Origin: Terriglobia bacterium
GTDB taxonomy: Bacteria > Acidobacteriota > Terriglobia > 20CM-2-55-15
Direction of reading: 5' to 3'
Assembly (NCBI GenBank): GCA_965198225.1
Contig: CBDAOY010000007.1
Span: 990,045 to 1,054,044, forward strand
DNA length: 64,000 nt
The position numbers were made by a program, and so were the translations under genes. Under the pieces are notes generated by a model. That model was not told the DNA's origin, did not search any database, and was given only the letters and a program-made list of their open reading frames with translations. Below are positions 17,388 through 60,734 of the stretch, one piece after another. The first letter of the stretch is position 1. Each line of letters begins with the position of its first letter.

Positions 17388-17705
17388 TTCTCTCTCCTTC
17401 ACGATATTGAGTGCACTTACGGGCAGGGTTACCCGAATGTTCAATACCGTCCACCAGTCCATCGGTTACGCCCGGTTCGGGATTCGCGAGTGCGATCGGT
17501 CGCAAATCGTCGTCCGGTCGCCTGCATGCTCGCATGCGCATCTCCCGTTCCATCGTTCCGATTCACGTAATTCGTTGAAAGCAATACGGCAATGGTTCAC
17601 CCGCGGGTGATGCCCCGCTGTCCCCGTGCCCGTCTGTGGGACGGCCGGTCCGAAAACGAACAGTGGAGTCGAGCAGGGCTGAATTCAGTCTGACGGACGC
17701 GGCGT

Positions 17706-37489: not shown

Positions 37490-38305
37490 CTAATTTCCCC
37501 TCCGAATATAAATATTTCCGTTGAACGTGGTGAGCTGGAACTCCGGTCCGCCGCCGTTGATGTTGCCCGTGATCGTCTTGTCGATTCGGATTCGGCTACG
37601 GTCGCCGCGCGATTCGTCGATGACTTCCTGCGTTCCGCCGGACTGCCGCTCGATCTCGAAGTCGCTGTAGATCTCTCCGTTGTCGGTCTTCATCTTGATC
37701 GTGGCGTTGACGTTGCCGGGGAGCGTGACGTCGATTTCACCGTTGAGGGTACTGAAAGACATCGGTGTGTCGGGGGTGACGCTCGTGAACGTGACCACGA
37801 CCTCGCCGTTCAAAGCGTTCGCGATGGCCGATCCGCCGATGTTCGTCAGCCGTACTGCGCCGTTGGTGTTGTCGACCTCGATCTCGCCGCGAACATCGGA
37901 CACCACGATATCGCCTCCGCTGACCGTGTCCAGCTCCAACGAGGTGTCGAAGGGAACCCGGAGCCTCACGTTCGTGACACGGGACATCGCGCTGCTTTCG
38001 ATCGTCATCACGTTGTTCCGTTCTTCTACTTCCAGCCCGGTCGACAGGTTCGGAATTCGTCGCAGGCCGCGTGCCCTGGGAGGTGCCTCTCGCCGCGATT
38101 CAGAATCCTGCCCGGCGGCCTCGATCACGACGTCGGAACCGTCGTAGCCCTCGACGGTGATCCCTCCCATGAGGATATCGGCGACGACGCGTCCCGGACG
38201 TGATGGGTCGGAAAACGGAAGCGTGATCTGTTCCTGCGCCGCTACGGGCAGCGCCGTGGCGAGGAGCAACGGGATGATCACAGTTGCGAGATTGGCTTTG
38301 TTCAT
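37490..38305 (-). CDS. DUF4097-type beta-strand repeat protein (secreted)
   Basis: Signal peptide MNKANLATVIIPLLLATALPVAAQ. Repeats TNGAVRL, LNGEVVV, LNGEIDV, DNGEIYS, FNGNIYI. Confidence 0.7.
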   Translation of the reverse strand: MNKANLATVIIPLLLATALPVAAQEQITLPFSDPSRPGRVVADILMGGITVEGYDGSDVVIEAAGQDSESRREAPPRARGLRRIPNLSTGLEVEERNNVMTIESSAMSRVTNVRLRVPFDTSLELDTVSGGDIVVSDVRGEIEVDNTNGAVRLTNIGGSAIANALNGEVVVTFTSVTPDTPMSFSTLNGEIDVTLPGNVNATIKMKTDNGEIYSDFEIERQSGGTQEVIDESRGDRSRIRIDKTITGNINGGGPEFQLTTFNGNIYIRRGN

Positions 38306-38360
38306 GGTCTTCTTCCTTCGAGGCAGAATCGCCGCATTCTCCTCTAATCGTGACGAGTGA

Positions 38361-39179
38361 TCACAAGTTCAGTTGATCGAGCCCCCACGCGGCGCGTTCG
38401 CGCACGCTTTCATGGACGGCTCCGTTCTGCCTCAGTTGTTCGAAAACCCCGATAGACCGCTGCTCCCGGATGTCGACCAGAAAATTGATCAATGAGATCT
38501 GGACCAGTGGCGACTCCTGCCGGGCCAGGGAATTCAAAACCCCCTCCCGAACGGAGGGCGTGTCGCTGAATTCCACGAGAGCATCGATGACGGCGAGCCT
38601 CACGTTCACGTTGGGGTCGTAGTTCAGCGTGCTCAACAGGGAAGTCAGGATCTCTTGGTTCGGTCGAGCGATTTGCGAAGTCCAGTTCACGCCACGCAGG
38701 CGCTGGCTGGCCGATTGCTGTTCGAGAAGGGAGAGGGCGACGAGCTGTCTGAGGCTCTGGACTTCTCCCTCCAGAGTGCGCAGGTCCCCGTTCGGAGCCT
38801 CTGTCACCATGAACTGCGTACCAACGACGAGTCCGACGACGAGAAGCGTCAGTGCCGAACCGAGCTGAACCAGCGGTTGGCTGGGCCACCATCCCGCTAT
38901 CCACTCATTGAGAGATTCGTGCCATCGCGGTCCTGGATGGGCGTTGGCCAGGCCTTCCTCGTAAGCCTCCAACATGGCTTCGAAACGGGCTCGAACTTTG
39001 GGTGAAGGTTCCTCCGTCGGGATCGAACCGAGCTTCGTCCAGATGCCCCTGAGGCTATCCGCCTCCTGCTGGCATGCCGAGCAGGTGTTCCAGTGAGTCT
39101 GGAGGGCTGTCTTGGAGAGCTCATCCAGACTATCGGTCAGATAATCGGGGAGTTTTTCTCTTACTTTTGCGCATTCCAT
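38361..39179 (-). CDS. Anti-sigma factor (zf-HC2 N-terminus, one TM segment, HEAT-like repeat C-terminus)
   Basis: MECAKVREKLPDYLTD...HWNTCSACQQE (C-x..-H-x3-C-x2-C). TM segment LVQLGSALTLLVVGLVVG. It overlaps the upstream sigma gene by 19 nt. Confidence 0.7.
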   Translation of the reverse strand: MECAKVREKLPDYLTDSLDELSKTALQTHWNTCSACQQEADSLRGIWTKLGSIPTEEPSPKVRARFEAMLEAYEEGLANAHPGPRWHESLNEWIAGWWPSQPLVQLGSALTLLVVGLVVGTQFMVTEAPNGDLRTLEGEVQSLRQLVALSLLEQQSASQRLRGVNWTSQIARPNQEILTSLLSTLNYDPNVNVRLAVIDALVEFSDTPSVREGVLNSLARQESPLVQISLINFLVDIREQRSIGVFEQLRQNGAVHESVRERAAWGLDQLNL

Positions 39180-39745
39180 GACTTTTTCTCACCTGCAATC
39201 CTGAAATAGACCTTCCTCAGTTCCTGCGTTGCCCGGAAGACTCGAACCTTGACGGTTCCGGTGTCGCAGCCCATGACCTCGCCGATCTGATCGTATTTCA
39301 TGTTCTGAAACCGGCTCAGAATCAACACCTCGCGCTTCTCGTCGGGAAGATCCGCCAGAGCCCGTCGCAACAGCGCGGCCTCCTGCTTTTTCCCAAGGTC
39401 CTCGGGCGCGACCGACGGGCTCATCACCTCCAGCAGCGTGTCTTCGAAGTAGTACTCCCGCTTGTGCTTGTTGAGGTGGTCGATCCGGGCGTTCCGCGCG
39501 ATGTGGTACATCCACGTCGTGAACCGGCTGCTGGCTCGAAACGTAGCACGGTACTTCAGAATCCGGAAGAAGACGTCTTGAACGAGATCCTCGCTCACTT
39601 CGCGGCTGCCGGTCATCCGGATGAAGAAGTCGAACAGCTTCCTGTGATTCCGGTCAAACAGCACCCCCAGCTTGGCCACCTGCCCCTTGCTCACGTCGAG
39701 CATCAGGGCATCATCGCTGACGGAACTGACTTCCTGCGCCTTCAT
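39161..39745 (-). CDS. ECF-type sigma-70 family RNA polymerase sigma factor
   Basis: Region 2 DLVQDVFFRILKY..FTTWMYHIARN. Region 4 VLILSRFQNMKYDQIGEVMGCDTGTVKVRVFRA. Confidence 0.85.
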   Translation of the reverse strand: MKAQEVSSVSDDALMLDVSKGQVAKLGVLFDRNHRKLFDFFIRMTGSREVSEDLVQDVFFRILKYRATFRASSRFTTWMYHIARNARIDHLNKHKREYYFEDTLLEVMSPSVAPEDLGKKQEAALLRRALADLPDEKREVLILSRFQNMKYDQIGEVMGCDTGTVKVRVFRATQELRKVYFRIAGEKKSWNAQK

Positions 39746-40390: not shown

Positions 40391-40422
40391 AAAATAGGGA
40401 CAGACTCCTGTGTCCCTATTTT
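40391..40422. promoter_or_regulatory. Perfect 12-bp-arm palindrome AAAATAGGGACA-N8-TGTCCCTATTTT
   Basis: It sits in the ~100-bp divergent spacer between the TPM pseudogene and the glycosyltransferase gene. It could be an operator or a hairpin. It shares GGGACAG/TGTCCC with the 138-bp repeat family. Confidence 0.4.
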
Positions 40423-40448
40423 ATCGGCAACATTTTGAACCACTTAAA

Positions 40449-41150
40449 ATGCCGGCTATGAAGATCTCTGTCATCATCCCAGCCTACAACGAAGCGGACC
40501 AGATCGGGCTGACACTGGACGCCGTCCACGCCGCAGGCCTTGATGACGTTCTGGTGGTCGACGGCGGCAGTGCCGACGAAACGGTTCTGCACGCACAGGC
40601 CGCCCGGGTGACGACGATGGAGGGTCCCCGGGGAAGGGCGAGCCAGATGAACGCCGGCGCGCGAGTCAGCAGCGGGGAGGTCCTGCTGTTTCTCCACGCC
40701 GACACGCGCCTGCCGCCGGACGCGGGCCGGCTTGTCGAGAACGCCCTCGCGGACGATCGCGTCCTCGGTGGTGCCTTCCACCTGCGATTCGACTCCGGCG
40801 GCTGGCTCATGCGTCTGGTGAGCTTCCAGACCAACGTGCGTTCCTACATTCTCGCCCCCTGGGGGGATCAAGCTCTTTTCGTCCGCCGCACCTTCTTCCT
40901 CGAAACCGAAGGCTACCGGCAATGGCGCTTGATGGAGGACGTCGAAATGGCTCATCGCATCAAGAAGAACGGACGATTCACAATGATCCGGACCCCGGTG
41001 GTGACTTCCGGTCGACGATTTCGCGAGCAAGGCTTCATCCGAAACGGAGTCCGCAACCAGATGCTGATGGCGGCATACTATGCAGGCATTGCGCCGGACC
41101 GCCTGGCTCGATTCTATTCCTATGACCGGCGAACAAGAGAGGAACGCTGA
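40449..41150 (+). CDS. Family-2 glycosyltransferase of the 'rSAM/selenodomain-associated transferase 2' type (TIGR04283-like, by recollection)
   Basis: ISVIIPAYNEA..VVDGGSADET..GRASQMNAGA..LLFLHADTRLP..GGAFHLRFD..WGDQALFVRR..MEDVEMAHRIKK..TSGRRF. Confidence 0.75.
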   Translation: MPAMKISVIIPAYNEADQIGLTLDAVHAAGLDDVLVVDGGSADETVLHAQAARVTTMEGPRGRASQMNAGARVSSGEVLLFLHADTRLPPDAGRLVENALADDRVLGGAFHLRFDSGGWLMRLVSFQTNVRSYILAPWGDQALFVRRTFFLETEGYRQWRLMEDVEMAHRIKKNGRFTMIRTPVVTSGRRFREQGFIRNGVRNQMLMAAYYAGIAPDRLARFYSYDRRTREER

Positions 41151-42623: not shown

Positions 42624-45077
42624 TCAGCAGCACTCGCCGGGTTCGCAACACTCAACGCTGGACAGCGCCGCGTCAGCATCCTTGGCCATCACCAGGAAAG
42701 ATCCCGCGTAAGGCTCTCGCGACAGTTTCGCAGCGGTATCGGTGCACACCTGGACGGGTTCGTTTCGGGGAAAGAGGTGGCCTTCCTCGTCGACGACCGC
42801 CTTCAGCGGGCCCAGATAGACGGCGCGCTGGCCTTCGAAGTTGCACACTCCGTTCTTCCCGAACTTGAAGCCCTGGATGATCAGCGAGTAGAAACGGTAG
42901 CCTTCGATCTCTTTCCAGAAGGTTTTCTCGACGAGCGACAGGCCGTAGAAACCCACCTGCTCGAGCATGGCGAAGTATTCATCTTCGGTCAGTGCTCCCG
43001 AGACGCACTCTCCCCACAGCCGGGGGTTGGCTTTCATGTGGTGGGGAATCTTCGATTCGGACACCGTGTCGGAGATGATCGCGCGGCCGTGATTCTTCAG
43101 AACCCGCCACATCTGCGAAAGTACGCGGCGTTTATCGGGCGAAAGGTTGATCACGCAGTTGGACGTCACGATATCGGCCTTCTGATCCTCCAGCGGAAGC
43201 TGTTCGAGGTATCCGCGCCGGAATTCGACGACGTCGTACCCGAGGGATTCGGCGACGATGCCCCGATTCCGTTCGGCCCGCTCGATCATTTCCGTCGTCA
43301 TGTCGATGCCGATCACACGACCGCTGGACCCGACGCGCTGTGCCGCGATAAAGCAGTCGATACCGCCTCCCGAACCGAGATCGACGTATGTTTCGCCCGG
43401 CTTGATGTCGGCGAACCGAATCGGGCTGCCGCAGCCGTAGGACACCTCGACGACTTCCTTCGGCAGTGCCCGAAGCTCGGCGGGGTCGTAGGCGGTCGGA
43501 CAGCACAGCGCTTCCTGAGGCTCGACGGCCGCCTGGGCGTAGAACTGGCGGACTTTCTCACGCGATCGTTCCAAGTCGACGGAGAGGACGCACGTGGAAC
43601 GGGATGTGGCGATCTCGAACCCCTCCGCTTCAATGGTTTCCATCTCAGAAAGCGATTCACCCATCGCGGCCACGACGGTCGGGGAATCGTATCCGGATGG
43701 GCCCTCATGGCTCTTGTTCTCAGAGGCGATCTGCTCGATCGCTCGGAGCAGCAGCCATTCGTGAACCTTCGAAAACGGGTCTTTTCCAAGGACGGTGCCG
43801 GAGTAGAAGAATGAATGTTCGACGTCACCGCCGCCGCACACGTAGCGCAGGTAGCATTCCTGACAGTCTTCTTTCGCGATGACGCTGGCTCGGCGCAGCG
43901 CGCGCGCGCGCGCGGATGTTTTCCAGATTTCCGCCAGCGGCTGTTCCTCGACGTTGCCCATAAGCAGTTCGGGGACACCGGCCAGCGCCGCGGAAGGATA
44001 GACGGTGCCGTCCGCGTAGACGCAGCAGCTGCTCGTGGCCGCGACCGACAGGTCCATCTTGACCCCGCGTCGGCCCTGAGCCCTTTCCCGGGCGACCTCG
44101 TAGTTGTCGAGCTCGATTCCCTTCGAAGATGCGTTTTCCAGGTATCGTTCCAGCATCTCGATGATGTCGGCGGTGAACGGACTCTGCATCTGGTCGTCTT
44201 CCAGAGCCCTGCCCTGTTTGTGGTCCCACAGCAGGTGATGACGCCGGACGCCGAGTTTGTCCAGGAACTCCGGGAATCGAGGAAGCGTGTCGAGGTTCGA
44301 GCGAGTCACGACAGTGGACACGGTCGGTTCAAACGCGGCGTCCAGCAGGGCGCCGATGCCTTCGACGGTTCGCTCGAACCCGGATCCGCGGATCGCGTGG
44401 TGGGTCTCGCGGTCGGGTCCGTCGATGCTGACCTGTAGGGCCACGTTGCCGTTCGCGGCGGCTTTGAGATTGGCCAGGGTATCGCCCCGGAAGAACATGG
44501 CGTTGGTCAGGATGACGAGTTCGCTGTCGGTGCAGATGGCCCGAACGATGTCGATCAGGTCGCGCCGTAAGAACGGCTCTCCACCGGTGATGTAAAATTG
44601 CCGAACACCCATCTGTTTCGCGTCGTCGACGATCTTCAGCCATCGATCAGTTGGAAGTCCCTCGATCCCTTTCGGGGAAGAATCCACGAGGCAGTGGGCG
44701 CAAGTCAGGTTGCAGCGGTTCGTCAGGTGCAGCCACATCTCTTGCGGCTCGTGGCGCTCGATCAACGCCCCGCGACCCGGATAGGTCGGGTGCTGGAACG
44801 GCTCGCTTCTCAGGAAGTCGGTCCGCAGTGCATGGTTGAGCAGCGTGCTGACGTCGAGCCAGGCTTCGGCCCAGTCCTTGCCCGCGTGGGACCGGTAGCG
44901 GCCCACAAGGTCCGAGACCCTCCGCTGTCCGTCGATCCAGCCGAGTATTTCGACGCCCGCTCGGTTCGTCACGATCCAGTTTGGCGCCTCGGGGTCGAAC
45001 ATCAGTCCGAATTCTCCGATCAGCCGCTCTTCGTAACGTGGGGGCGCGTGAAGTACCTGTTCAGGCAAGATAGTCAT
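42624..45077 (-). CDS. Fusion protein: PqqD-like N-terminus + radical SAM/SPASM domain + complete ArsM-type As(III) S-adenosylmethionine methyltransferase + Cys-rich tail
   Basis: Radical-SAM motif TNRCNLTCAHC. SPASM-like CCVYADGTVYPS..CQECYLRYVCGGG. ArsM hallmarks VRQFYAQAA..ALCCPTAYD..YGCGSP..VDLGSGGGIDCF..NCVINLSPDK..WGECVSGA, with all four As-binding Cys positions present. Tail VECCEPGECC. A GGAG Shine-Dalgarno precedes the ATG. Confidence 0.85.
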   Translation of the reverse strand: MTILPEQVLHAPPRYEERLIGEFGLMFDPEAPNWIVTNRAGVEILGWIDGQRRVSDLVGRYRSHAGKDWAEAWLDVSTLLNHALRTDFLRSEPFQHPTYPGRGALIERHEPQEMWLHLTNRCNLTCAHCLVDSSPKGIEGLPTDRWLKIVDDAKQMGVRQFYITGGEPFLRRDLIDIVRAICTDSELVILTNAMFFRGDTLANLKAAANGNVALQVSIDGPDRETHHAIRGSGFERTVEGIGALLDAAFEPTVSTVVTRSNLDTLPRFPEFLDKLGVRRHHLLWDHKQGRALEDDQMQSPFTADIIEMLERYLENASSKGIELDNYEVARERAQGRRGVKMDLSVAATSSCCVYADGTVYPSAALAGVPELLMGNVEEQPLAEIWKTSARARALRRASVIAKEDCQECYLRYVCGGGDVEHSFFYSGTVLGKDPFSKVHEWLLLRAIEQIASENKSHEGPSGYDSPTVVAAMGESLSEMETIEAEGFEIATSRSTCVLSVDLERSREKVRQFYAQAAVEPQEALCCPTAYDPAELRALPKEVVEVSYGCGSPIRFADIKPGETYVDLGSGGGIDCFIAAQRVGSSGRVIGIDMTTEMIERAERNRGIVAESLGYDVVEFRRGYLEQLPLEDQKADIVTSNCVINLSPDKRRVLSQMWRVLKNHGRAIISDTVSESKIPHHMKANPRLWGECVSGALTEDEYFAMLEQVGFYGLSLVEKTFWKEIEGYRFYSLIIQGFKFGKNGVCNFEGQRAVYLGPLKAVVDEEGHLFPRNEPVQVCTDTAAKLSREPYAGSFLVMAKDADAALSSVECCEPGECC

Positions 45078-45256
45078 GGGGTGTCTCCTGATTCAATGCG
45101 AAGGGCAAGTTCTCCGAACGAATCATTTGATCGACTTTTCTTCAGCCGATATTGTAAGCGAAGTCACCGAGATGGGAAGGGTAGCGTGGATGTCAAAGAC
45201 GAGAGAGGTGAGGGGCGCCGGCAGACGATGACGCGACCTGCCGGCGTCTGCGCCTT

Positions 45257-45915
45257 ATCCCGGGCGTCGACGCATCTCTTCCCGGGTGATGAATCCATCA
45301 TCGTCCGCGTCGAGGCGGTCGAAGGCCTCAGTCGGTCGGGTCCACTCGTCACGAGAAACCTTGCCGTCGCCGTCTTCATCCATCTGGAGCATCGCGGCTC
45401 CCCGGCCACGTCCGCCTCTGCCCGGGCGGGAGTTCTGCATCTCTTCGAGAGTGATGAAGCCGTCGCCATCGGCGTCCATGGTCTCGAACATCTGCGCGGG
45501 ACCCGGAAACTCCTGCTGCGACACGCGTCCATCGCCATCGCTGTCGAGCCCCTGGAAACGGGCTTGAGGGTCTGCGCCTCTTCCGCCTCTATCCCGGGCG
45601 TCGCCATCTCTTCCCGAATCCATCATCGTCCGCGTCGAGGCGGTCGAAGGCCTCAGTCGGTCGGGTCCACTCGTCACGAGAAACCTTGCCGTCGCCGTCT
45701 TCATCCATCTGGAGCATCGCGGCTCCCCGGCCACGTCCGCCTCTGCCCGGGCGGGAGTTCTGCATCTCTTCGAGAGTGATGAAGCCGTCGCCATCGGCGT
45801 CCATGGTCTCGAACATCTGCGCGGGACCCGGAAACTCCTGCTGCGACACGCGTCCATCGCCATCGCTGTCGAGCCCCTGGAAACGGGCTTGAGGGTCTGC
45901 GCCTCTTCCGCCTCT
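45257..45915. repeat. Tandem direct duplication (334 bp + 325 bp) inside the EF-hand coding region
   Basis: 45257..45590 and 45591..45915 are identical by eye except for a roughly 9-10-nt indel cluster at the start of each unit (..GACGCATCTCTTCCCGGGTGATGAATCC versus ..GCCATCTCTTCCCGAATCC). Confidence 0.85.
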
Positions 45916-46746
45916 GCCGCGGCCGCCCCCGAATTGCCGCTGGATTTCGTCACGAGCGAGGAGACCATCATCGTTTCGATCGAGCCGGTCGAACGTCTCG
46001 CCGTCGCCCGTCCACTCTTCCCGTGAGATTGTACCGTCCTCGTTCGTGTCCATGACGCCCATACCGCCCGCAGTCCCGGGCCTCTGCCCCGGCCGAGGGC
46101 GCATACCACGCATGCCGCGGCCGCGACGCTGTCCCTGTTCCTGTCCGTAGGCGGTGATCTCCCCTCTGAGAGCGACCTCGAGCGCTGCCCTGGCTTCGGG
46201 GACATCGAACCCGGCCGGCCCGGGGCGTCCCTTGAAGGCGATGGTGCCGTCGGAGCCCACGACATAGATCCGGTCGGGAAACGCGGCGTACGCATTCGCC
46301 GTCCGGTCGTCGATCTTGTCCAGAATGGTCGGCATCGAGATGTCCAAGGCGGTCGTACAGATGTTGGCTGCTTCCTGGCGCTGCTCGTCGGTTTTGGCTT
46401 GTTCGATCAGGATGCCGTCGATAACATTCGCCGCTCCGAGGTTGCCGTCGGTGGGATGCGCTTCTCGAATGTAGACGAAGAAGAAATTGGCGCGGTCCTT
46501 GTAAGCCTGGTACCAGTTTTCGATGTCCACGACATCGCGGCGGAACGGGCCTCAGGTATAGCTGGCGAAGATCAGCGCGGTCGGTCTGCCCGTCATCTCA
46601 GAAAGCGTAATCTTTTGCTTTCCGTCTTTTGTACTGAGCGTGAAATCAGGCGCCGTATCTCCAGGCGTGGGGCCGCCGCCTCGCCGCTGGGCCGTGGCAG
46701 GGCTCACCAGGACGAGGACCAATAACGCAGACGCGAATGTTCTCAT
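45589..46746 (-). CDS. Candidate selenoprotein: secreted deiodinase-like thioredoxin-fold domain (in-frame TGA = Sec) fused to EF-hand repeats
   Basis: Track ORFs 46552..46788 and 45589..46530 are in one frame. Read through TGA 46554..46552 they give ..TALIFASYT-U-GPFRRDVVDIENWYQAYKDRANFFFVYIREAHPTDG... The ATG at 46746 is preceded by GGAGGAG and is followed by signal peptide MRTFASALLVLVLVSPATAQ. There are five intact EF-hand loops plus one truncated loop. Confidence 0.6.
46521..46537 (-). promoter_or_regulatory. Candidate bacterial SECIS hairpin
   Basis: The RNA CGAUGUC-GUG-GACAUCG starts 14 nt after the UGA. It is a 7-bp perfect stem with G/U in the apical loop. Confidence 0.4.
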
Positions 46747-46845
46747 GGGTTTACTCCTCCGTCGACTATAGACAGGGCGGAGCGGCACGGGTTTAAGAGC
46801 GTTTTCAAATCGAATGAGGACCGCGTCCAGCGGTACGAGCTAGCT

Positions 46846-47016
46846 TCAGCCCCCTCCGCCAAGGAGGAAGCCTCCTGCGGCGCCGCGCGCTGTTCCCGAC
46901 GCCAGGTCTCCCAGGAGCAGACCGCCTATTGCGCCGACAACGGCAAACACCGCGATCGTGCCCATCTTGGCTGCTGCGGACTTCTTAGCGCAGCTTTGTT
47001 CTTCGTTCTCTGTCAC
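46846..47016 (-). CDS. Possible small glycine-zipper membrane protein (56 aa)
   Basis: Own translation from GTG 47016 (GAGG lies 8 nt upstream): VTENEEQSCAKKSAAAKMGTIAVFAVVGAIGGLLLGDLASGTARGAAGGFLLGGGG*. It is below the ORF-track size cutoff. Confidence 0.25.
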   Translation of the reverse strand: MTENEEQSCAKKSAAAKMGTIAVFAVVGAIGGLLLGDLASGTARGAAGGFLLGGGG

Positions 47017-47558: not shown

Positions 47559-47864
47559 ATGCCTCGAAACTACATGACATATCCGTCCGGTCTGGTCCTG
47601 CAGGCAATCGCTTCGGGGCATCGGTATGGTTTCGATGTGATGGATGTGACGGGATTGCCGAGTGGTACGGTTTACCCGGCACTTCGGAAGCTGGAACGAG
47701 AGGGCTATGTCCGTTCCAGGTGGGAAGGCGAAGATGTGGCCCGCCAGGCAGGGCGTCCACCGCGGCGTTACTACGAGGTTAGCGGCCCTGGCTCGGCGGC
47801 CTTGACCCAGCTGCTGAAACGGTTTCCAGGACTGGCCCGGGCCCTTGCCGCGGAGGTCTTGTGA
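47559..47864 (+). CDS. PadR-family transcriptional regulator
   Basis: LVLQAIASGHRYGFDVMDVTGLPSGTVYPALRKLEREGYVRSRWE..GRPPRRYYEVS. Confidence 0.88.
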   Translation: MPRNYMTYPSGLVLQAIASGHRYGFDVMDVTGLPSGTVYPALRKLEREGYVRSRWEGEDVARQAGRPPRRYYEVSGPGSAALTQLLKRFPGLARALAAEVL

Positions 47865-48475
47865 GGTGGGCAGGCGGCGAGCGGTCTCTCCGCGTCTGCC
47901 TGTTGTGGATTCGCGCTCTGTCGTTCCTCGTCCCGCCCCCGGGCCGGGACGAATGGATGCGGGAGTGGCGTGGCGAGCTTCTGCATCACTGGAGTGAGTT
48001 CGAGACAGGAGTTCAAAAGTCCCGTGCTGCAAGATTCGATTTGTTCCTACATTCGATGGGCGCCTTGCCTGATGCACTGTGTCTGCTGCGTCAGGAGTGG
48101 AGACTGGACATGCTGATGCAGGATCTGACCTATGCGGTACGGACGCTCGGCGCTCGACCGGGCTTCACCTTCGTAGTGATTTTCATTCTGGCGCTGGGTA
48201 TCGGGGCCAACACCGTCGTGTTCAGCGTCGTCGATGCCGTCCTGTTTCGACCCCTACCGTTTCCCGAGCCGGAGAGGCTGGTTGCGATCTGGGACGAAAA
48301 CACCCAAAAGTCGATGCTTCGTCAGGGTCCGGCGCCCGGCAATCTGCTGGACTGGCGTGACCAGTCACGGGTGTTCGATGGTATCGGAGCCTGGTACGCG
48401 GGCGAGCCCAGGACTGTGCGCGACGAGTCCAGTGCGGAGAAAGTGTCCGCCACTATAGGATTTTATTATGTCTAA
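47861..48475 (+). pseudogene. ADOP-type (duplicated MacB/FtsX-like) permease gene, truncated after ~197 codons by island insertion
   Basis: MLMQDLTYAVRTLGARPGFTFVVIFILALGIGANTVVFSVVDAVLFRPLPFPEPERLVAIW..NLLDWRDQSRVFDGIG matches the ADOP N-terminus. Similarity ends at ..AEKVSA (about 48451), where AT-rich foreign sequence supplies a stop. Confidence 0.75.
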
Positions 48476-48535
48476 TAATATCCATAAGTCTTATTTATAT
48501 CAACAGTATATCGTCCTAGACAATCCAGCGCCGTC

Positions 48536-48544
48536 TGGTATAAT
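48536..48544 (+). promoter_or_regulatory. Extended -10 element TGGTATAAT upstream of the integrase
   Basis: A TGnTATAAT match about 70 nt upstream of the integrase ATG, within the AT-rich junction. Confidence 0.35.
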
Positions 48545-48613
48545 CCAAGCCTGTTGGGGGATATATTGGGGGAGTGCTGGAGTGCCTCTGCCCCATCGGT
48601 CGAGGGCTCTGCA

Positions 48614-49792
48614 ATGGCCATTCACAAACTCTCCCAACGCAAGGTAGACACCGCCGGTCCCGGCAAATACGAAGACGGCGGCGGGCTCCGCTTGGTGGTG
48701 TCCAATTCAGGCGCCAGGAGATGGGTCCTGCGTTACACCGTCCACGGCAAACGCCGGGAAATGGGTCTGGGCCGTTATCCCGATGTCGGGTTGGCCGATG
48801 CCCGCACGCAAGCGCTACGGCACCGGAGGCAGTTGGCGACGGGCGTAGATCCCATCGCAGCCCGCCGGGCGGCCCCGGAGACGCTACCCACCTTCACCAT
48901 CTGCGCCGCCCGGTATATCCGGGCCCATCGACGGAGTTGGCACAATGCCAAGCACGCGCGGCAATGGGTCCGGAGCCTGAAGACCTATGCCCGGCCCGTC
49001 ATCGGGGCCAAACGGGTCGACGCCATTGAGACTGAAGACATTGTAAAGATACTCTCTTCGATCTGGAACACCAAGACCGAAACGGCCAAGCGCGTGCAGG
49101 GGCGCATCGAAAATGTCCTGGACTTCGCCGCCGCGCACCAATACTGCGGTCCCCTGAACCCGGCCCGCTGGCGGGGCCATCTGGACAAGTTGCTCCCGAA
49201 GCCCTCCCGGGTGAAGCAAGTCACCCACCACCCGGCCATGCCGTATCCCGAGGTGGCGGACTTCCTGCAGGAGCTGTCCGGACACCGGAGTGTATCGGCG
49301 CAGGCGCTGCGGTTTTTGATCCTGACCGCCACGCGCACCAGTGAAGTCTTAGAGGCGCAGTGGCCGGAAATCGATCGGACCGCCGGTATATGGATCCTTC
49401 CCGCCTCCCGGATGAAAGCCCGACGGGAACATCGAGTTCCCTTATCGGATGCGACCCTGGCGGTTCTGGAAGACCTACCCCGCATGGCAGGCCACCCGTA
49501 TGTCTTCGCCGGATCTCGCCACGGACGCCCTCTGTCGAACATGGCCCTACTGAAATTGATGCGAGACATGGGATATTGCGTTGAGGGTTCCCGGGCTCAC
49601 TACGTGCCGCATGGATTTCGCTCCAGTTTTCGGGATTGGTCCGGCGAGGTGTCGAGCTTCCCGCGAGAAGTTGCGGAAATGGCCTTGGCCCACGTGGTGG
49701 AGAACAAGGTGGAAGCGGCCTACCGGCGGGGGGATCTGTTCGCCAAACGGCGCAGCATGATGCAGGCCTGGGCCGACTACCTCAAGAAGTAG
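48614..49792 (+). CDS. Tyrosine recombinase / P4-type integrase (DUF4102 arm-binding N-terminus)
   Basis: MAIHKLSQRKVDTAGPGKYEDGGGLRLVVSNSGARRWVLRY..GRYPDVGLADAR. Catalytic region TATRTSEV, HGFRSSFRDW, AYRRGD. Confidence 0.9.
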   Translation: MAIHKLSQRKVDTAGPGKYEDGGGLRLVVSNSGARRWVLRYTVHGKRREMGLGRYPDVGLADARTQALRHRRQLATGVDPIAARRAAPETLPTFTICAARYIRAHRRSWHNAKHARQWVRSLKTYARPVIGAKRVDAIETEDIVKILSSIWNTKTETAKRVQGRIENVLDFAAAHQYCGPLNPARWRGHLDKLLPKPSRVKQVTHHPAMPYPEVADFLQELSGHRSVSAQALRFLILTATRTSEVLEAQWPEIDRTAGIWILPASRMKARREHRVPLSDATLAVLEDLPRMAGHPYVFAGSRHGRPLSNMALLKLMRDMGYCVEGSRAHYVPHGFRSSFRDWSGEVSSFPREVAEMALAHVVENKVEAAYRRGDLFAKRRSMMQAWADYLKK

Positions 49793-52041: not shown

Positions 52042-52611
52042 AGCCCCGAGATAACGCTTTCCTCGCCGTTGATCACACGGCGCGGCGGATTTTTTTCGAT
52101 CCGGCGCCTGCTGCCCATCAGCTCAGGGGGGGCGGGACGCAACGAGGTCTGTCTACCGAACGGGGGAGTTGTGGTGCCTTCTACGGCCCGAATGAGCGCG
52201 ACCAGATATCGCCAGCGAACCGGAGAAAGGGACATCGACTTGGCAGAACACCGTGAAATCGCGGCGTCACGCGTCACAGGGATAGACACGAAAGCGGTGG
52301 CGAAGGACTGAGGTGGCCGTATCGATACGGTCGTGGCGGCGCGCTCACCCGCAGCCGTGGCTGCGCCGATGATTTGTCCATGGGGCGATCCGCCGCGTGA
52401 CCGCAAGCCGCTGGCGATGAGTGCCTGCCCGGTTCACGGAAATCGGGCTATGGGCTCTGCCGTGCAGCGCCGCCCGCCTGTTCCGTGCCGAGCCCGTTGG
52501 CAGGACATGAGCAGTTTCGCCGCCGATACCGTCGATCAACGTGCGACCGTCATCACCGGTCCCCGGGTGTCGGTCCGCGGACGTCAATTCACAAGGGCGA
52601 CGCGCTACCGC

Positions 52612-53751
52612 ATGCGCGTGCTCTCTTTTTCGCTGCAAGGCCTTAAAACCGGGTTATTTCTGCTATTCGCATCACTGCTGGCCGTGTCGGCGCCGATTCA
52701 GGCCAGCGCGCAGGCGAACAGCCCTCCGGCGGTGACGGGGCCAACCAGCGTCGACTACGCCGAGAACAGCGAGGAGACGGTGGCCACGTATATCGCTACG
52801 GACCCGGAGGCCGAAGCAATCGCGTGGAGCGTGTCCGGGACGGACCATGCGCTGTTTTCCATCACTGCGGGTGTCCTGGAGTTCCTGAGCCCGCCGAACT
52901 ACGAGAGGCCTATCGACGAGGGCGAAGACAACGCGTATGAGGTGGGCGTCACGGCCACGGATTCCTCCGGGGCGGCCGCCACCGTTGCGGTCACCGTGAC
53001 GGTAACAGACGTCAACGACCCGAACATCGTCCTCATCATGGCGGACGATGTCGGTTATGAGGCCTTTGGGGCATACGGTAGCGCACAGTACAGAACGCCG
53101 CGAATTGATGAGCTTGCAGCCGCGGGAGTTCGCTTCACGAACGCTTACTCAAACCCGGTATGCACCCCGAGCAGAGTTGCCTTGATGACGGGTAAGAGCA
53201 GTGTCAGGAACTATGTGGATTTCGGAGTTCTACTCCCCGGAGAATACACGATTACTGATCTCTTTAGTGGGGCCGGATACGCAACGGCCATCGCCGGAAA
53301 GTGGCAGCTTCACGGTAGTGTCGTAGGTAGTGACGTAGTGGCTGGTGTCCCTGCCGGAACCGGATTCGACACGTATTCCTTGTGGAATACAGCCAACACG
53401 GGTCGTAGTCGCTACTGGAATCCTTCCATCGAACGCGACGGTGAAATCATCGATCTGGGCAGCGAGGATTACGGGCCCGACATATTCACGAATTTCCTGC
53501 TGGAATTCATAGAGTCCAACAGAGATAAACCGTTTTTCGCCTACTACCCGATGGTGCTTCCTCATGATCCGTTCGGCTCGCCGCCGCAAGCCCAATGCGT
53601 CGATACCGCTGACGGACAGTGCAATTTCGAGGACATGGTCGCGTATCTCGATTACAACGTCGGCCGCATACGCGACAAGCTGGCGGACCTGGAGCTACTC
53701 GACAACACAATCCTCATATTCACCTCCGACAACGGAACTCACGCACGCTGA
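52612..53751 (+). CDS. Signal peptide + cadherin-like domain + sulfatase N-terminal part (continues in the +1 frame; see 53738..58837)
   Basis: MRVLSFSLQGLKTGLFLLFASLLAVSAPIQASA. VTVTDVNDPNIVLIMADDVGY. Formylglycine motif CTPSR. The frame ends ..IFTSDNGTHAR*, in the middle of the sulfatase domain. Confidence 0.8.
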   Translation: MRVLSFSLQGLKTGLFLLFASLLAVSAPIQASAQANSPPAVTGPTSVDYAENSEETVATYIATDPEAEAIAWSVSGTDHALFSITAGVLEFLSPPNYERPIDEGEDNAYEVGVTATDSSGAAATVAVTVTVTDVNDPNIVLIMADDVGYEAFGAYGSAQYRTPRIDELAAAGVRFTNAYSNPVCTPSRVALMTGKSSVRNYVDFGVLLPGEYTITDLFSGAGYATAIAGKWQLHGSVVGSDVVAGVPAGTGFDTYSLWNTANTGRSRYWNPSIERDGEIIDLGSEDYGPDIFTNFLLEFIESNRDKPFFAYYPMVLPHDPFGSPPQAQCVDTADGQCNFEDMVAYLDYNVGRIRDKLADLELLDNTILIFTSDNGTHAR

Positions 53752-56700
53752 TCTGATTTCAGAACTCGGGGGAGAAATGATCCATGGGGATAAGAACATG
53801 CCCAACAATGGCGGCACGCGGGTACCGCTGATAGTCAGCGTTCCAGGAGGTGAGGGGGGACGGGTGTTCGACGACCTGATCGACTTCACCGACTTTCTCC
53901 CGACTCTGGCTGATGCGGCAGGTCTTACGATTCCTGACGTCAATATGCTGGACGGCGTGAGTTTTTGGGACAGGCTTCAAGGCCGAACCGGCCAACCGCG
54001 GGAATGGATATATACCTATTACTTCCCACGTCCGTTCGCCGATAGGTTCGACAATCCGCAACGTCATCCAGAGGCGTCGTATGTCCGAGACAAGCGGTAC
54101 CAGCTCTACGGAACAGGAGAGTTCTTCGACATTTCCGTAGACCCTCACCAAGTGCATCCGTTGCCGAGTGACGATGAAGAGTCCAGCGCCGCCCGTACCA
54201 AGCTGCAAGCGGTTCTCGACTCGATGCCGGGGAGAGGTGAGGAGATTTACCCATATTTGATAGGAACTGTCCCGGACTCTGAGCCGCGCCCGCGATGGCG
54301 GCCCGTCCTGTCGAAAGCAACTGTGAACGGCGGCCAATTGACGCTCACTTACGCCGGAATTCTGGACTCAAGAGAAGCGCCTCCCGCAGATTCCTTCATT
54401 GTGAACGTTGATGGTTCCGAGCGTGCGGTCTCCACAGTTTCGATAAGCAAAACAGCGGTTACGCTTACACTCGCTTCGGCGGTTACAGTTGGCCAGACGG
54501 TGACGTTGAATTACACGCCGGGAACGAATGCGATTCAGCACGCGAACAGGCCATTCGGGCACAAAGCGGCACCCCTGGTTCGCCAAGGGGTGACGAACAA
54601 CACTGTGGACACGACGGCGCCGGCGGTGTTGTCGATCACGAGCGACGCGACGCACCCGACGAAGAACGCTTTCACGGTGACGATAACCTTTTCGGAGGAG
54701 GTGAGGGGACTCACGGCGGGGGAGATCGCGGTCACCAATGGCACGGGCTCGAACTTTGCGGGCACAGGCGCGAGCTACATGCTCGACATCGAACCCAGCG
54801 ACGATATCGAAGCCGACGTGACGGTCCGGGTTCCGGCCGATGCGGCGATGGACGCCGCGAACCTCGGCAACATCGAGGGGATCGAGACCTTCGCGGTGGA
54901 CACCCAGGCGCCGGCGGTGTTGTCGATCACGAGCGACGCGACACACCCGACGAAGGATGCTTTCAGGGTGACGATCACCTTTTCGGAGGCGGTGACGGAG
55001 CTCACGTCGCAGGATATCGCGGTCATGAACGGAGTGGGCTCGAACTTCGCGGGCACGGACGCGCGCTACACGCTCGACATCGAGCCCAGCGCCAATACCG
55101 AAGACGATGTGACGGTCCGGGTTCGGGCCAACGCGGCGGTGGACGGCGTGAACATCGGCAACGTCGAGGGGATCGAAACCTTTGCGGTGGACACCCAGGT
55201 GCCGAGGGTGTTGTCGATCACAAGCGACGCGGCGCACCCGACGAAGGATACTTTCACGGTAACGATCACCTTTTCGGAAGAGGTGACGGGGCTGACGGCG
55301 AGTGAGATCGTGGTCAGCAATGGCCGTGGCTCGAACTTCGCGGGCACGGGCGCACGCTACACGCTCGACATCGCTCCGAACGCCAACCTTGAAGCCGATG
55401 TGACGGTCCGGGTTCGAGCCAACGCGGCGGTGGACGGCGCGAACAACAGCCACGTCGACGAGGGCGAGACCTTCGCTGTGGACACGCGGGCACCGGTGTT
55501 GATGAGCGCTGCGGTGGATGGCGACACGCTGACGCTGAGCTATGGGGAGGCGCTGGGCAACCCGACACCGGAGCCGGGCGATTTCACGATGAATGTGGAG
55601 AGCGCTGGGCGGAGCGTTTCCAGGGTGGCGGTGAGCGGAAGAGCGGTGACTTTGACGCTTGCCTCGGCCGTGGCGCATGGCGAGACGGTGAGAGTGAGCT
55701 ACAGCCCGGGGACGAACCCGATCCAGGACGCGGTGGGCAACCAGGCTCTGGGACTGAGCAACGCGTCGGCCACCAACACTACGGATGCACCCAACACGGA
55801 TCCGATGATCACGAGTCCGGGGCCGTTCAATGTCACTGAGAATCAAGCGCGGGTGACCCGGCTGATGGCGGCCGACGCCGACCCGGGGGACGAGGTCACC
55901 GGCTATACGCTTGTCGGCGGAGCCGATCGGGCCCAGTTCACGGTCGGTGAGGATACCGGAGATCTGGGCTTCCGGGCGGTTCCGAACTTTGAAGCGCCCA
56001 CGGATGCCTTCAGTAACGATCCGCCAAGTGGGGCAGGAGACAACGAGTACATCGTGGTGGTCCAGGTCAGCAGCGGGGCAGGAACGCGGGTGCGGACGGC
56101 GGAACAGACGATTCGCGTGCGGGTGAGTGACGTGGAGGAGCTTCCAGCGGCGCCGGAGGAGCCGACTTTTCCGAGGGCGACGCCGGACAGCCTGACGGTG
56201 GCGTGGACGGAGCCGGACAACACCGGGCCGCCCATCACCGGCTATGACGTGCAATACCGGGAAGGCGTCAGCGGCGGCTTCACGGATGCGCCGCACTCCG
56301 GGACGGCCCAAACCACAACGCTCATGGGGTTGAGCGAGGGCACGGCCTACCAGGTGCAGGTGCGGGCGAGGAACGCGGAAGGAACAGGTGACTGGTCGGA
56401 GCCGGGCGAAGGACGGACCGTGGCCCCGCTGAGGGTTCGGATGACGCCGGAGCTGGAGCCGCCGGTGGAGGGCCCGTTCTCGGTGAGGTTCAGCTTTTCG
56501 GAGACGGTGACGGGTTTCAGCGGAAGCGACATCGAGACGGGTCAGGACCTTGCCTGCATGGACGATCAGAACAACCCGGTGTTCTGCAACCCCGGCTTTG
56601 CGGCATTCGAGACCACGGATAGCCGGGTCTTCACCACCCGCGTGACCCCGAGGACCGGCGGGGTGGCCAATAACTACAAGCTCACGCTCACGGTGCGTGC

Positions 56701-58873: not shown

Positions 58874-59803
58874 ATGAGCTTCGAACCGGGCGTCGACGCC
58901 CAACGCGGGAGAGCCCGAGTCAGGGGGGCACGGACCACGGCATGCCTGGACGGTTCACGGCGCGCCGGCGGTAGACATCCGATCCGTGGACACCGTGGGC
59001 CGGGGGCGCCCCCGGATGCATACCGGAGGCCGGCGGGGGTCCATCATGCCTGGGATGACTGTGATGTCGATGTTGCCGTGCTCGGTCGCGTGCCTCGTCG
59101 CAGCCGGCATCCGCGGTGTTGCGGAATGGCTCCACGCGTTGAGGCTCGACGACAGCTCGCGCTGGCTGGGCCCATCCTCCGAAAACCTCTGCTATCCGTA
59201 TCGCGAAAGGCGCTGGCCTCCGGCGAGCCGGAAGATCCCCCCGGCTGGGAACGGATCTATGAAGGCTCGTTCCTGGAAGCAGCGCTGGTCACACAGCTTT
59301 CCGGCGACTTTCCCGGCCCGGTGCTGGCCGTGGTTTCGGTGCCCTTTTACTCGGCAGACCGGCAGCGGATTTTAGTCCCGCGAGGGGCGCGAGTCGTGGG
59401 CACGGCTCAGGCCGTGGCGAATCAGGACCAATCGCGCCTTGCCGTCAGTTTCCACCGTTTGATCTATCCGGACGGGCGTTGGGTGTCGCTGGAATTCAAC
59501 GGCCTCAATCAGGTCGGCGAGGGAGCCTTGAAAGATCAGGTCAACCGCCATTACCTATCCACGTTCGCCGCAGTCGGCGCGGTCGGCATCCTGAGCGGGC
59601 TGACCTTGCGCGGCTCCAATCCCTATGGCGGCGGGCAGCAGAGCCTTCAGGCTGGGGCCGGACAAGGGCTCGGCCAGGCCGCGACGCGCATCCTGGATCG
59701 TTTCCTGAATCGTTTGCCCACCCTCACCATTCGGGCCGGGCATCGGCTTCGCGTTTGGTTCACTTCCGACGTGCTGGTTCCCCGGCCCCAACAAGGAGAT
59801 TGA
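58874..59803 (+). CDS. VirB10/TrbI-like protein, C-terminal barrel domain only (N-terminus not credible, probably truncated)
   Basis: GSFLEAALVTQLSGDFPGPVLAVVSVPFYSADRQRILVPRGARVVG..RLAVSFHRLIYPDGRWVSL..LPTLTIRAGHRLRVWFTSDV. No TM or Pro-rich N-terminal region was found. A possible start is the ATG at 59126. Confidence 0.6.
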   Translation: MSFEPGVDAQRGRARVRGARTTACLDGSRRAGGRHPIRGHRGPGAPPDAYRRPAGVHHAWDDCDVDVAVLGRVPRRSRHPRCCGMAPRVEARRQLALAGPILRKPLLSVSRKALASGEPEDPPGWERIYEGSFLEAALVTQLSGDFPGPVLAVVSVPFYSADRQRILVPRGARVVGTAQAVANQDQSRLAVSFHRLIYPDGRWVSLEFNGLNQVGEGALKDQVNRHYLSTFAAVGAVGILSGLTLRGSNPYGGGQQSLQAGAGQGLGQAATRILDRFLNRLPTLTIRAGHRLRVWFTSDVLVPRPQQGD

Positions 59804-59804
59804 A

Positions 59805-60722
59805 ATGAAAATGTACCGAAAAGCCTTCACCGTTGTTGTCATGGTTCCGATCCTCATCATGCTCACCACCACGCCCGCGCATGCCCTCTTCGGCTCGATC
59901 CTTGCGGGCATCCAACGCGCCCAGATGATCGCCAATCAGGGGATCCAGATCTACAAGGACACAATGGCGAAGATCACCCTGGACGGCCAATTGACCCAGA
60001 TGACGGATCAGTTCAACCACCTGCAAGAACAGGCGCTCGGAAGTGTCGGGGCGCTCACCGATCCGTTTACGCAGTTGGCTTCGGTGCCGACGCAGTTCAT
60101 CGGCGTGGGTCTCGCGTGGAAGAACGATTTTACCGGCGTTGCCGCGGAGCTTGTCTCGTCGGTGGAACAGATGGGCGAAACCGGCACGAGCTTTACCGAG
60201 TCGTGGCGTGATCGGCTCACCGCCGCCGACACGGTGACTGAGAGCGACATCATTGGTCTGTACAACTCTCAGCGGCCCGAAATGGCCCAGAGAGCGGCAC
60301 GGGGCTACCTTGCGGCGCGAGAGGAAGGCGAGAAACGCCTGGTCCTCGATCACGCCACGAGCGATGCGGCGGCGAATCTCATGATTGCGGCGCGTGAGGC
60401 TGTGGCCTCCTACGAAGGACTGCGAAACAACACCAATACTTCCAACACCGCGCTCGCTCAATCGCAGGTGGCCGGGACCCTGACCCAGGGGAACCTCACC
60501 GCGGCCATGGCGCAGTTGATGGCGTTCGATACAGCAAAGGCGGCAGCGGAAGATTACGAACGCGAGATCGCCCGGCGCGACGCGCTGGCGGAATGGGTCG
60601 AGGCCCAGCGCCGCGCGCGCGTCACCTTCGACGCGCAACAGGCCGGGCTCGATGCCCGGCGCGATGCGATGCGGGAAGGGTTGCTCTTCCAGATTCATCC
60701 GTTCTATCGCGGCGGGAACTAA
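59805..60722 (+). CDS. VirB5/TrbJ-like type IV secretion protein
   Basis: A signal peptide followed by long helical/coiled sequence, in the position between the VirB10-like and VirB6-like genes. Assignment is by layout and context. Confidence 0.45.
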   Translation: MKMYRKAFTVVVMVPILIMLTTTPAHALFGSILAGIQRAQMIANQGIQIYKDTMAKITLDGQLTQMTDQFNHLQEQALGSVGALTDPFTQLASVPTQFIGVGLAWKNDFTGVAAELVSSVEQMGETGTSFTESWRDRLTAADTVTESDIIGLYNSQRPEMAQRAARGYLAAREEGEKRLVLDHATSDAAANLMIAAREAVASYEGLRNNTNTSNTALAQSQVAGTLTQGNLTAAMAQLMAFDTAKAAAEDYEREIARRDALAEWVEAQRRARVTFDAQQAGLDARRDAMREGLLFQIHPFYRGGN

Positions 60723-60734
60723 CCCGGTACGCCG

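Follow-up and report, generated by a model that had tools for sequence, protein, structure and literature searches.

A UGA-interrupted deiodinase-like gene with a C-terminal EF-hand array in a Terriglobia bacterium probably encodes an exported selenoprotein

INTRODUCTION

Does a TGA in the middle of a bacterial reading frame end a gene, or is it read through as selenocysteine (Sec)? This question is raised by a locus on the minus strand of a 64,000-nucleotide (nt) stretch of DNA from a Terriglobia bacterium (Acidobacteriota; GenBank assembly GCA_965198225.1, contig CBDAOY010000007.1, positions 990,045 to 1,054,044 of the forward strand), which we refer to as the window. At this locus, two open reading frames (ORFs) that lie in the same frame are separated by a TGA at 46554..46552. 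An initial annotation, made from the letters alone, had proposed that the two form one gene for a secreted deiodinase-like protein fused to EF-hands, with Sec at its catalytic position, and had called it a candidate new selenoprotein. Here, we report that the locus very probably is one gene and encodes an exported selenoprotein of the bacterial deiodinase-like (PF00837) family.

The enzyme family as such is not new. A bacterial deiodinase-like selenoprotein family with Cys homologs and a bacterial Sec insertion sequence (SECIS) element was reported in 2005 from the Sargasso Sea metagenome, where it comprised four sequences and a redox function was suggested (PMC1088965), and it was listed in the 2022 and 2026 reviews of prokaryotic selenoproteomes (PMC9312934, PMC13188914). 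In these papers, the function of the bacterial proteins is given only as a presumed redox role (PMC1088965, PMC9312934, PMC13188914). The word "new" in the initial annotation is accordingly not sustained for the PF00837 selenoprotein family, which has been known since 2005, and what the locus adds lies in its architecture.

RESULTS

One reading frame and one deiodinase-like domain run across the TGA

Reading 45500..46900 directly on the minus strand, we found a single coding sequence that extends from an ATG at 46746 to a TAG at 45591..45589 and is interrupted in frame by the TGA at 46554..46552. It is 385 codons long in the window and 388 in the undisrupted allele (see below). The elements on which the initial annotation had built its case, i.e., the GGAGGAG, the ATG at 46746, the hydrophobic N terminus, the position of the TGA, and the open frame downstream of it, were each recovered in this reading. 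The gene and the elements of its catalytic half are as follows.

45589..46746, minus strand: complete read-through coding sequence, with ATG 46746, the UGA as putative Sec65, and TAG 45591..45589; based on translation, the Pfam domain across the TGA, and the same layout in orthologs
46754..46760, minus strand: Shine-Dalgarno-like GGAGGAG, 7 nt 5' of ATG 46746, read from the sequence
46687..46746, minus strand: predicted Sec-type signal peptide MRTFASALLVLVLVSPATA/Q, assigned from sequence features
46552..46554, minus strand: in-frame UGA, codon 65, in the motif S62-Y-T64-U65-G-P-F-R; based on Cys homologs and TGA conservation
46177..46668, minus strand: iodothyronine-deiodinase-like thioredoxin-fold domain, residues 27 to 190
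46453..46473, minus strand: motif Y92-I-R-E95-A-H97-P, equivalent of the deiodinase (Dio) motif YI(E/D)EAHPSDG, aligned to Dio3 and Dio2
46357..46359, minus strand: Cys130 (TGT), with no other Cys in the mature protein

A Pfam search that was made with Cys substituted at the TGA returned PF00837 (T4_deiodinase) at 85.5 bits against a cut-off of 27 (E = 4.5e-24). As this match covers residues 27 to 190, the domain runs across the TGA, which supports the continuity of the two ORFs. The best sequence matches in the PDB were mouse Dio3 (4TR3, a SeCys-to-Cys mutant; E = 1.7e-17) and Dio2 (9H48). FASYT-U-GPF was aligned to FGSCT-C-PPF of 4TR3 and YIREAHPTDG to YIEEAHPSDG, and the TGA fell on the active-site residue of Dio3, in agreement with the catalytic position that had been assigned to it initially. 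The presumptive catalytic Sec would sit in an S-x-T-U/C-x-P-F motif at the start of helix alpha1. An AlphaFold model of an ortholog (P0001; 78% identical, predicted local distance difference test score of 86.8) had 4TR3 (target template modeling score, 0.76) and 9H48 as its top fold matches in the PDB, followed by oxidoreductases of the ResA/TlpA type and peroxiredoxins. The modeled structure is consistent with a thioredoxin fold of the Dio type for this domain.

For the animal enzymes, a proton relay consisting of a Ser, a Thr, a Tyr, a Glu, a His, and a second His has been proposed (PMC11592359). Five of these six residues are matched in the window protein by S62, T64, Y92, E95, and H97, while the second His aligns with Lys118. 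Among 68 members of the family (selected as described below), S62, T64, U/C65, P67, F68, R69, Y92-P98, D143, P157, R159, and G176 were invariant or nearly so. The Y92..P98 motif was found unchanged in 68 of 68 sequences, although the loci were picked by that motif. Cys130 is conserved as Cys in 57 of the 68 and may act as a resolving cysteine, a role for which it is a candidate.

The predicted signal peptide contains neither a lipobox nor a twin-arginine motif in its sequence. Hydrophobic N termini resembling signal peptides or membrane anchors were also seen in the orthologs and in many of the listed family members, and the family appears, from these sequences, to act outside the cytoplasm.

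The TGA occupies the same codon throughout the family

A protein search with the read-through domain yielded 115 relatives, most of which consisted only of the part downstream of the TGA, with a minority of full-length proteins. Most of the database matches are C-terminal fragments because gene callers stop at the TGA; P0116, a form of 313 residues, corresponds to the truncated ORF of the window. Where full-length proteins were available (P0014, P0016, P0017, P0019, P0021-24, and P0029), the residue exactly in the TGA column was a Cys, and the surrounding sequence followed F[GA]S[YCLF]T-C-[PGN][PR]F. One gene call of the Joint Genome Institute carried a Trp (W) at the Sec position although its DNA reads TGA.

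At the DNA level, we scanned one genome per GTDB species with a query alignment of seven sequences and obtained more than 590 relatives, the best 80 of which were examined. The VYIREAHP motif was present in 68 of these 80, and the codon of interest was counted 26 codons upstream of it. This codon was TGA in 67 of the 68 homologs and TGT in one (L045), with the peptide conserved on both flanks, and the homologs were distributed over Acidobacteriota, Planctomycetota, Verrucomicrobiota, Chloroflexota, Armatimonadota, Poribacteria, and other phyla. The alignment that the initial annotation had put forward as a check thus placed the Cys of the homologs on the TGA column and recovered the TGA itself in nearly all of them. 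Within the species, the TGA was identical in four independent assemblies, i.e., the window, L001, L002, and L084; the proteins of L001 and L002 are 99% identical, and L084 showed 0 to 1 mismatches relative to the window over 6.4 kb. Purifying selection was evident on both sides of the TGA, as each flank is conserved among eight species of the clade but varies at synonymous sites; upstream, conserved residues use two to four synonymous codons.

These data bear on two other explanations of the interrupted frame. The locus might be a nonsense pseudogene, or two genes, namely one for a 64-residue secreted peptide and one for a cytoplasmic EF-hand protein that starts at GTG 46530. Standard gene callers make exactly this split, and Sec machinery is not visible in the window. 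Against it stand the recurrence of the TGA at one codon across phyla between conserved protein flanks, the single Pfam domain and single predicted fold that span it, the uninterrupted frames of the Cys homologs, and the consideration that a protein made from the downstream piece by itself would have neither the active site nor the initial strands of the fold. We regard this explanation as highly improbable. Even less credence, indeed virtually none, can be given to a sequencing or assembly error for TGC or TGT: Another apparent anomaly at the assembly level, a 325-nt duplication, lies 600 nt away and lends the idea some color, but the same TGA was read in four assemblies made from different samples (the window, L001, L002, and L084; one contig is labeled 18x), as well as in seven further species of the clade. 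The conservation described here cannot be accounted for by a nonsense mutation, by a sequencing error, or by two unrelated ORFs. When the window was searched for further genes split by a TGA, with high G+C at third codon positions on both sides, no convincing case emerged, at thresholds that missed even the present gene.

A constrained hairpin follows the UGA

Reading of a UGA as Sec by the bacterial system would be guided by a SECIS element within the coding sequence, for which one candidate was found.

46521..46537, minus strand: candidate bacterial SECIS minihelix CGAUGUC-GUG-GACAUCG, 17 nt, with a perfect 7-bp stem that starts 14 nt after the UGA and a G in the loop

This hairpin, already pointed out in the initial annotation at 46537..46521, is indeed present, and we observed constraint on its synonymous sites. 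A perfect hairpin of at least 7 bp that begins 8 to 20 nt downstream is found at about 1% of the TGA triplets of the window. In the clade of EF-hand-bearing orthologs (eight species, 68 to 95% protein identity), no species departs from the stem CGAUGUC/GACAUCG. Among the seven codons from +5 to +11 (R D V. D I E), six keep both the amino acid and one single codon in all eight species, and the loop codon, +8, varies. Elsewhere in the gene, conserved residues typically use two to three codons, and only 10 of 84 columns are single-codon. The loop variants of the clade, GUG, GGU, GGG, and GGC, all have a G as their first base.

The wider family was represented by 56 homologs that do not belong to the EF-hand clade. 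Here, a 7-bp stem begins 10 nt past the UGA and pairs columns 17-23 of alignment A3 with columns 27-33. It showed 61 two-sided changes, compared with 22.8 ± 3.6 in shuffles, and a covariation score of 0.41, compared with 0.14 when shuffled; none of 500 shuffles scored as high, and slid registers all remained at or below 0.17. The pairing is retained in these homologs while the encoded peptide varies (RRQVGAL, RSQAGIL, RREVPAL, and others). A minority of the sequences use a register 4 nt further downstream, which is the register of the hairpin in the window.

Homologs in four other genomes adjoin genes of the Sec machinery

The flanks of 60 loci contained five tRNAs in all, three of which were tRNA-SeC located within 10 kb of the homolog (L026, L039, and L048). 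NCBIfam models identified selA and selB beside the homolog in the same three loci and selD in L026, while tblastn added selD in L039 and L048 and a selA-selB pair beside the homolog of L059. In L048, the gene order is selC-selA-selB followed by the deiodinase-like gene, with selD on the opposite strand. In all four loci, which belong to Verrucomicrobiota and Planctomycetota, a UGA-containing deiodinase-like gene thus lies within 10 kb of selA and selB, and the link between the homologs and the Sec machinery is strong at the level of the family. As an aside, the SelD ORF of L026 begins at profile position 31, which suggests that this SelD has a Sec/Cys N terminus of its own upstream of a stop.

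The UGA might instead be decoded in another way, as Cys through a SelB-dependent variant of the tRNA-Cys(UCA) type or as Trp or Gly by near-cognate or suppressor reading. Some bacteria have been reported to carry natural recoding variants of the Sec system, and the source genome is seen here only through the tRNA set of the window, whose sole member is a tRNA-Ser. Yet TGA is an ordinary stop in this organism and is not reassigned: It ends 25 of the 60 predicted genes of the window, including genes whose Pfam domains reach their last residues. In addition, homologs in other genomes adjoin a canonical tRNA-SeC(UCA) along with selA, selB, and selD, and the constrained SECIS-like hairpin points to decoding of the SelB type. 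We consider such alternative decoding very unlikely. Decoding of the UGA at 46554..46552 as Sec is, in contrast, highly likely in view of these sequence comparisons. For the source genome itself, we infer it from conservation, since the machinery was not seen.

The deiodinase-like domain is followed by an array of EF-hands

Downstream of the catalytic domain, the read-through product continues into the following elements.

45592..46150, minus strand: Gly/Arg-rich linkers and EF-hand array (EF-hand_5/1/6/7)
46050..46015, 45981..45946, 45870..45835, 45801..45766, and 45705..45670, minus strand: five canonical EF-hand loops, 12 residues each, intact
45636..45601, minus strand: sixth EF-hand loop, damaged, DADDDGFGKRWR; loop coordinates taken from the sequence
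45591..45915, no strand assigned: 325-nt insertion, a tandem duplication of the 3' coding end, from a repeat search and alignments
45255..45590, minus strand: second, untranslated copy of the 3' coding end, with the original C terminus ...DADDDGFITREEMRRRPG and TAA 45257..45255, in another frame

The EF-hands that had been proposed for this protein proved to be real, matching the EF-hand families at E = 1e-16 to 1e-21, and the proposed signal peptide is likewise supported by the features of the sequence. The loops follow the pattern D-x-[DN]-x-[DG]-G-x-x-x-x-x-E and are arranged in pairs (PF13499, PF13202, PF00036), from which they are candidates for Ca2+ binding. The same layout was seen throughout in the orthologs L004-L010, which come from seven other Terriglobia/Solibacteraceae species: a signal peptide, T-U-GPFRRDV, the deiodinase-like domain, a Gly/Arg-rich linker, and three EF-hand pairs with RG-rich linkers. 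All six loops are canonical in L004-L009, and five were counted by the loop pattern in L010.

Such fusions are not confined to this clade. In a table of 67 loci, C-terminal EF loops occur in 11 rows, which correspond to the EF-hand clade (three same-species assemblies included) and one Planctomycetia genome. Another 11 rows carry two to four N-terminal EF loops; these belong to Planctomycetota and Verrucomicrobiota (L014, L024, L031, L032, L045, L057, L060, L061, L069, L073, and L082), with a TGA in all but L045, which has Cys. This distribution suggests that fusions of EF-hands to the deiodinase-like domain were repeated or rearranged. Furthermore, the NCBIfam model NF038285 ("deiodinase family protein," a hypothetical equivalog of 347 positions) is matched by the window's deiodinase-like domain at profile positions 174-344 and by its EF-hand tail alone at positions 45-138, so that a region resembling EF-hands is already part of the model, on the N-terminal side of its deiodinase domain. 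The pairing of the two is not unique to this protein. The domain order of NF038285 is reversed in the window protein, whose EF-hands are C-terminal. This C-terminal form with six EF-hands, conserved in Terriglobia, is an undescribed architectural variant; within the literature that could be searched, no paper joins a bacterial deiodinase-like protein with EF-hands.

The 3' end of the gene is rearranged in the window allele. The tandem duplication has exact 300-nt copies at 45291-45590 and 45616-45915, and the insertion is missing from L001, L002, and L084, the other assemblies of the same species (the contig of L084 is the one labeled 18x). The true 3' end of the gene in L001 and L084 matches the second copy exactly. 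At the junction, ...GFITREEMRRRPG-TAA is turned into ...GFGKRWRRPG-TAG, and the last 11 residues are rewritten. Because L084 is otherwise identical, the duplication must have arisen very recently or else be an artifact of assembly. In both cases, it leaves the Sec codon and the catalytic domain untouched.

The adjacent arsenic-type cluster is a lineage-specific neighbor

Beside the gene lies a cluster that had been described in the initial annotation as arsenic- and selenium-associated.

42624..45077, minus strand: radical S-adenosylmethionine (SAM)/SPASM and ArsM-like methyltransferase, 817 residues, downstream and co-directional; NCBIfam arsenite methyltransferase, 241.8 bits
41150..41830 and 40410..41150: partners of 42624..45077 in an arsenosugar-type cluster

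The radical SAM-ArsM gene is followed by a VTT/DedA-type membrane protein and then by matches to TIGR04282 and TIGR04283, the "arsenosugar biosynthesis glycosyltransferases," both above cut-off. The arsenic-type cluster is hence real according to its NCBIfam matches. The adjacency behind the suggested link between it and the selenoprotein gene is conserved only in the nearest relatives, where the whole region is syntenic; neither L007-L010 nor the wider family has it.

The arrangement nevertheless raises the possibility that the protein is an accessory enzyme of the organoarsenical pathway of the arsenosugar type, serving, e.g., the extracytoplasmic reduction of pentavalent arsenic. The gene is positioned directly upstream of the radical SAM/SPASM-ArsM gene in the same direction, with the TIGR04282/TIGR04283 glycosyltransferases nearby, and this arrangement is kept in L001, L002, L004, L005, L006, and L084. 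The unrelated flanking genes are syntenic in those genomes too, however, so shared ancestry of the whole region explains the adjacency. L007-L010 have no arsenic-type neighbor within 10 kb, and no arsenic gene recurs beside the family elsewhere. The product is predicted to be exported, whereas radical SAM and ArsM domains would be of cytoplasmic enzyme types, and a weak promoter-like site lies between the two genes. We consider a role in this pathway unlikely and the link to arsenic unproven.

The radical SAM-ArsM fusion has a Cys-rich end, CCEPGECC, that is followed by a TGA-TAG double stop. A second Sec codon at this place (CC-TGA-TAG) was considered and rejected: The orthologs L005 and L006 end in QCC-TAG, so the double stop is a plain stop.

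Several other features of the region were recorded. On the other side of the gene, a 204-residue ORF that is the N-terminal part of a 907-residue permease-like ORF in L004 is followed by a tyrosine integrase at 48554..49792 (region 47861..49792), and the type IV secretion genes TrbI and TrbL lie further on (58874..63345). Together, these two regions look like an integrative conjugative element that was inserted beside the locus. On the same side, L001 has IS256-type (Transposase_mut) transposases and type IV secretion genes instead. A sulfatase ORF at 52333..53751 overlaps the start of a 1757-residue Ig-like/fn3 protein (region 52333..58837) whose N terminus carries the sulfatase C-terminal domain SGSH_C; a frameshift or indel near 53564..53751 has probably divided what is a single gene. 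At 37490..39745 lie three genes, for an extracytoplasmic function sigma factor, for an anti-sigma factor, and for a DUF4097 "toastrack" protein. This trio is syntenic with the cluster in both L001 and L004; of the three, the sigma and anti-sigma genes alone are kept in L005, and the window has a second DUF4097 protein at 16590..17462.

DISCUSSION

How far does the protein fit what is known of its relatives? With the bacterial deiodinase-like family, it shares the Pfam domain, the Sec/Cys active-site position, and a bacterial-type SECIS hairpin right after the UGA. It differs from most of that family in a hairpin that is 4 nt further from the UGA and in an N instead of a W after HPTDG, and, in the published descriptions consulted, the family carries no EF-hands; the window protein adds a signal peptide and the C-terminal array of six. 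The animal Dio1-3 provide the best sequence and fold matches and have the Sec position in common with it, as well as both motifs (S-x-T-U-x-P-F and Y-I-x-E-A-H-P-x-D-G) and five of the six residues of the proposed proton relay. At the same time, the identity is only about 23 to 26%, the second relay His is a Lys, the alignment shows no conservation of the Dio3 positions Cys168/Cys239 or of the Arg275 clamp, and a cleavable signal peptide is predicted in place of a membrane anchor. A soil bacterium would not be expected to use thyronine substrates.

The next-best structural matches, namely extracytoplasmic thiol-disulfide oxidoreductases (ResA/TlpA/DsbE type) and peroxiredoxins, likewise have an exported redox domain with a thioredoxin fold. 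In contrast to them, the window protein has no CxxC and would use a Sec nucleophile with a Thr directly before it. The AhpC-TSA and Redoxin matches were marginal at 28 to 29 bits (AhpC/TSA, PF00578, 29.1 against a cut-off of 26), far below PF00837. Membership in the peroxiredoxins was also considered and rejected, as the PxxxT/SxxC motif is absent and the Thr adjoins the Sec.

A number of results weigh against the reading of the locus as a gene for an exported selenoprotein. Neither annotation of the roughly 50 genes of the window nor tblastn with SelA, SelB, and SelD from other loci revealed selA, selB, selD, or tRNA-Sec in these 64 kb, and the four genes were not found in the 20-kb flanks of the closest clade relatives either. 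The hairpin is short (7 bp with a 3-nt loop), the 50 nt that follow the UGA fold no more stably than shuffled sequence does (z = −0.06), and Rfam returned no SECIS family, at gathering thresholds on the whole window or permissively on 46400..46650. Because the folding energy is unexceptional, the hairpin counts through its conservation and not through its stability; it is moreover coding, so that the conserved peptide RDVxDIE accounts for part of that conservation. When the neighbors of about 65 family loci were clustered, no recurrent partner gene and no clue to a substrate emerged, the clusters returning only fragments of deiodinase-like genes and lineage-specific synteny. At 247 bits, the whole protein falls just below the NF038285 membership cut-off of 250. 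Last, the rearranged 3' end of the window allele damages the sixth EF-hand, in which the last ligand positions are lost.

With these points taken into account, the protein may work as follows. The UGA would be read as Sec65 through SelB and tRNA-Sec, guided by the 17-nt SECIS minihelix in the coding sequence, with the machinery presumably encoded elsewhere in the genome. The product would consist of a signal peptide, a catalytic domain resembling peroxiredoxins and thioredoxins, flexible Gly/Arg-rich linkers, and three EF-hand pairs, i.e., six loops in the intact allele. Sec65, in S-x-T-U-x-P-F, would be placed next to Y-x-x-E-x-H, the residues of the relay proposed for the animal deiodinases. 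Outside the cytoplasm, its selenolate could attack an electrophilic substrate, possibly a peroxide, an oxidant of the disulfide type, or a halogenated aromatic. Cys130, which is semi-conserved, or else an external thiol could then resolve the oxidized selenium. The EF-hand array might make the activity, the conformation, or the attachment to the envelope dependent on Ca2+. The comparisons themselves show that the gene is continuous and belongs to the family, that its UGA is conserved and its hairpin constrained, and that the EF-hand architecture is kept in orthologs. That the protein is exported, what it acts on, how Cys130 contributes, and whether Ca2+ is needed are points that we infer, and the functional part of the reading is weakly grounded, because no substrate or conserved partner gene emerged.

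A possible analogy for such a mode of action is SELENON, in which a Sec oxidoreductase is combined with a single EF-hand in the lumen of the endoplasmic reticulum and Ca2+ binding has been reported to tune the redox activity. Its catalytic domain is unrelated, it has an SCUG motif and a eukaryotic SECIS in the 3' untranslated region, and no homology to the window protein is implied.

The locus opens no new category of system, and its novelty is limited to the six-EF-hand tail on an enzyme family that has been known since 2005. It does expose a systematic error of annotation: Selenoprotein genes of this kind are routinely split or truncated in metagenome-assembled genomes, and nearly every database entry of the EF-hand clade is a C-terminal fragment that is labeled "hypothetical" or, where named, "EF-hand protein." The family also extends far more widely over soil and aquatic phyla than the four sequences of 2005, with more than 590 matches among GTDB species representatives. 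As a tentative speculation, for which we see some chance though well short of an even one, the EF-hand fusions at either end of Sec-containing deiodinase-like domains in Terriglobia, Planctomycetota, and Verrucomicrobiota might constitute a class of extracytoplasmic selenoenzymes whose redox or dehalogenating activity is switched or localized by Ca2+, a prokaryotic counterpart of SELENON. Since the Ser-Thr-Sec/Tyr-Glu-His core of the deiodinases is retained, these enzymes might act on halogenated phenolics of the soil. Taken together, the EF-hand fusions, the predicted extracytoplasmic site, and the deiodinase core provide a concrete hypothesis for the family, namely that it may carry out Ca2+-dependent Sec chemistry outside the cell.

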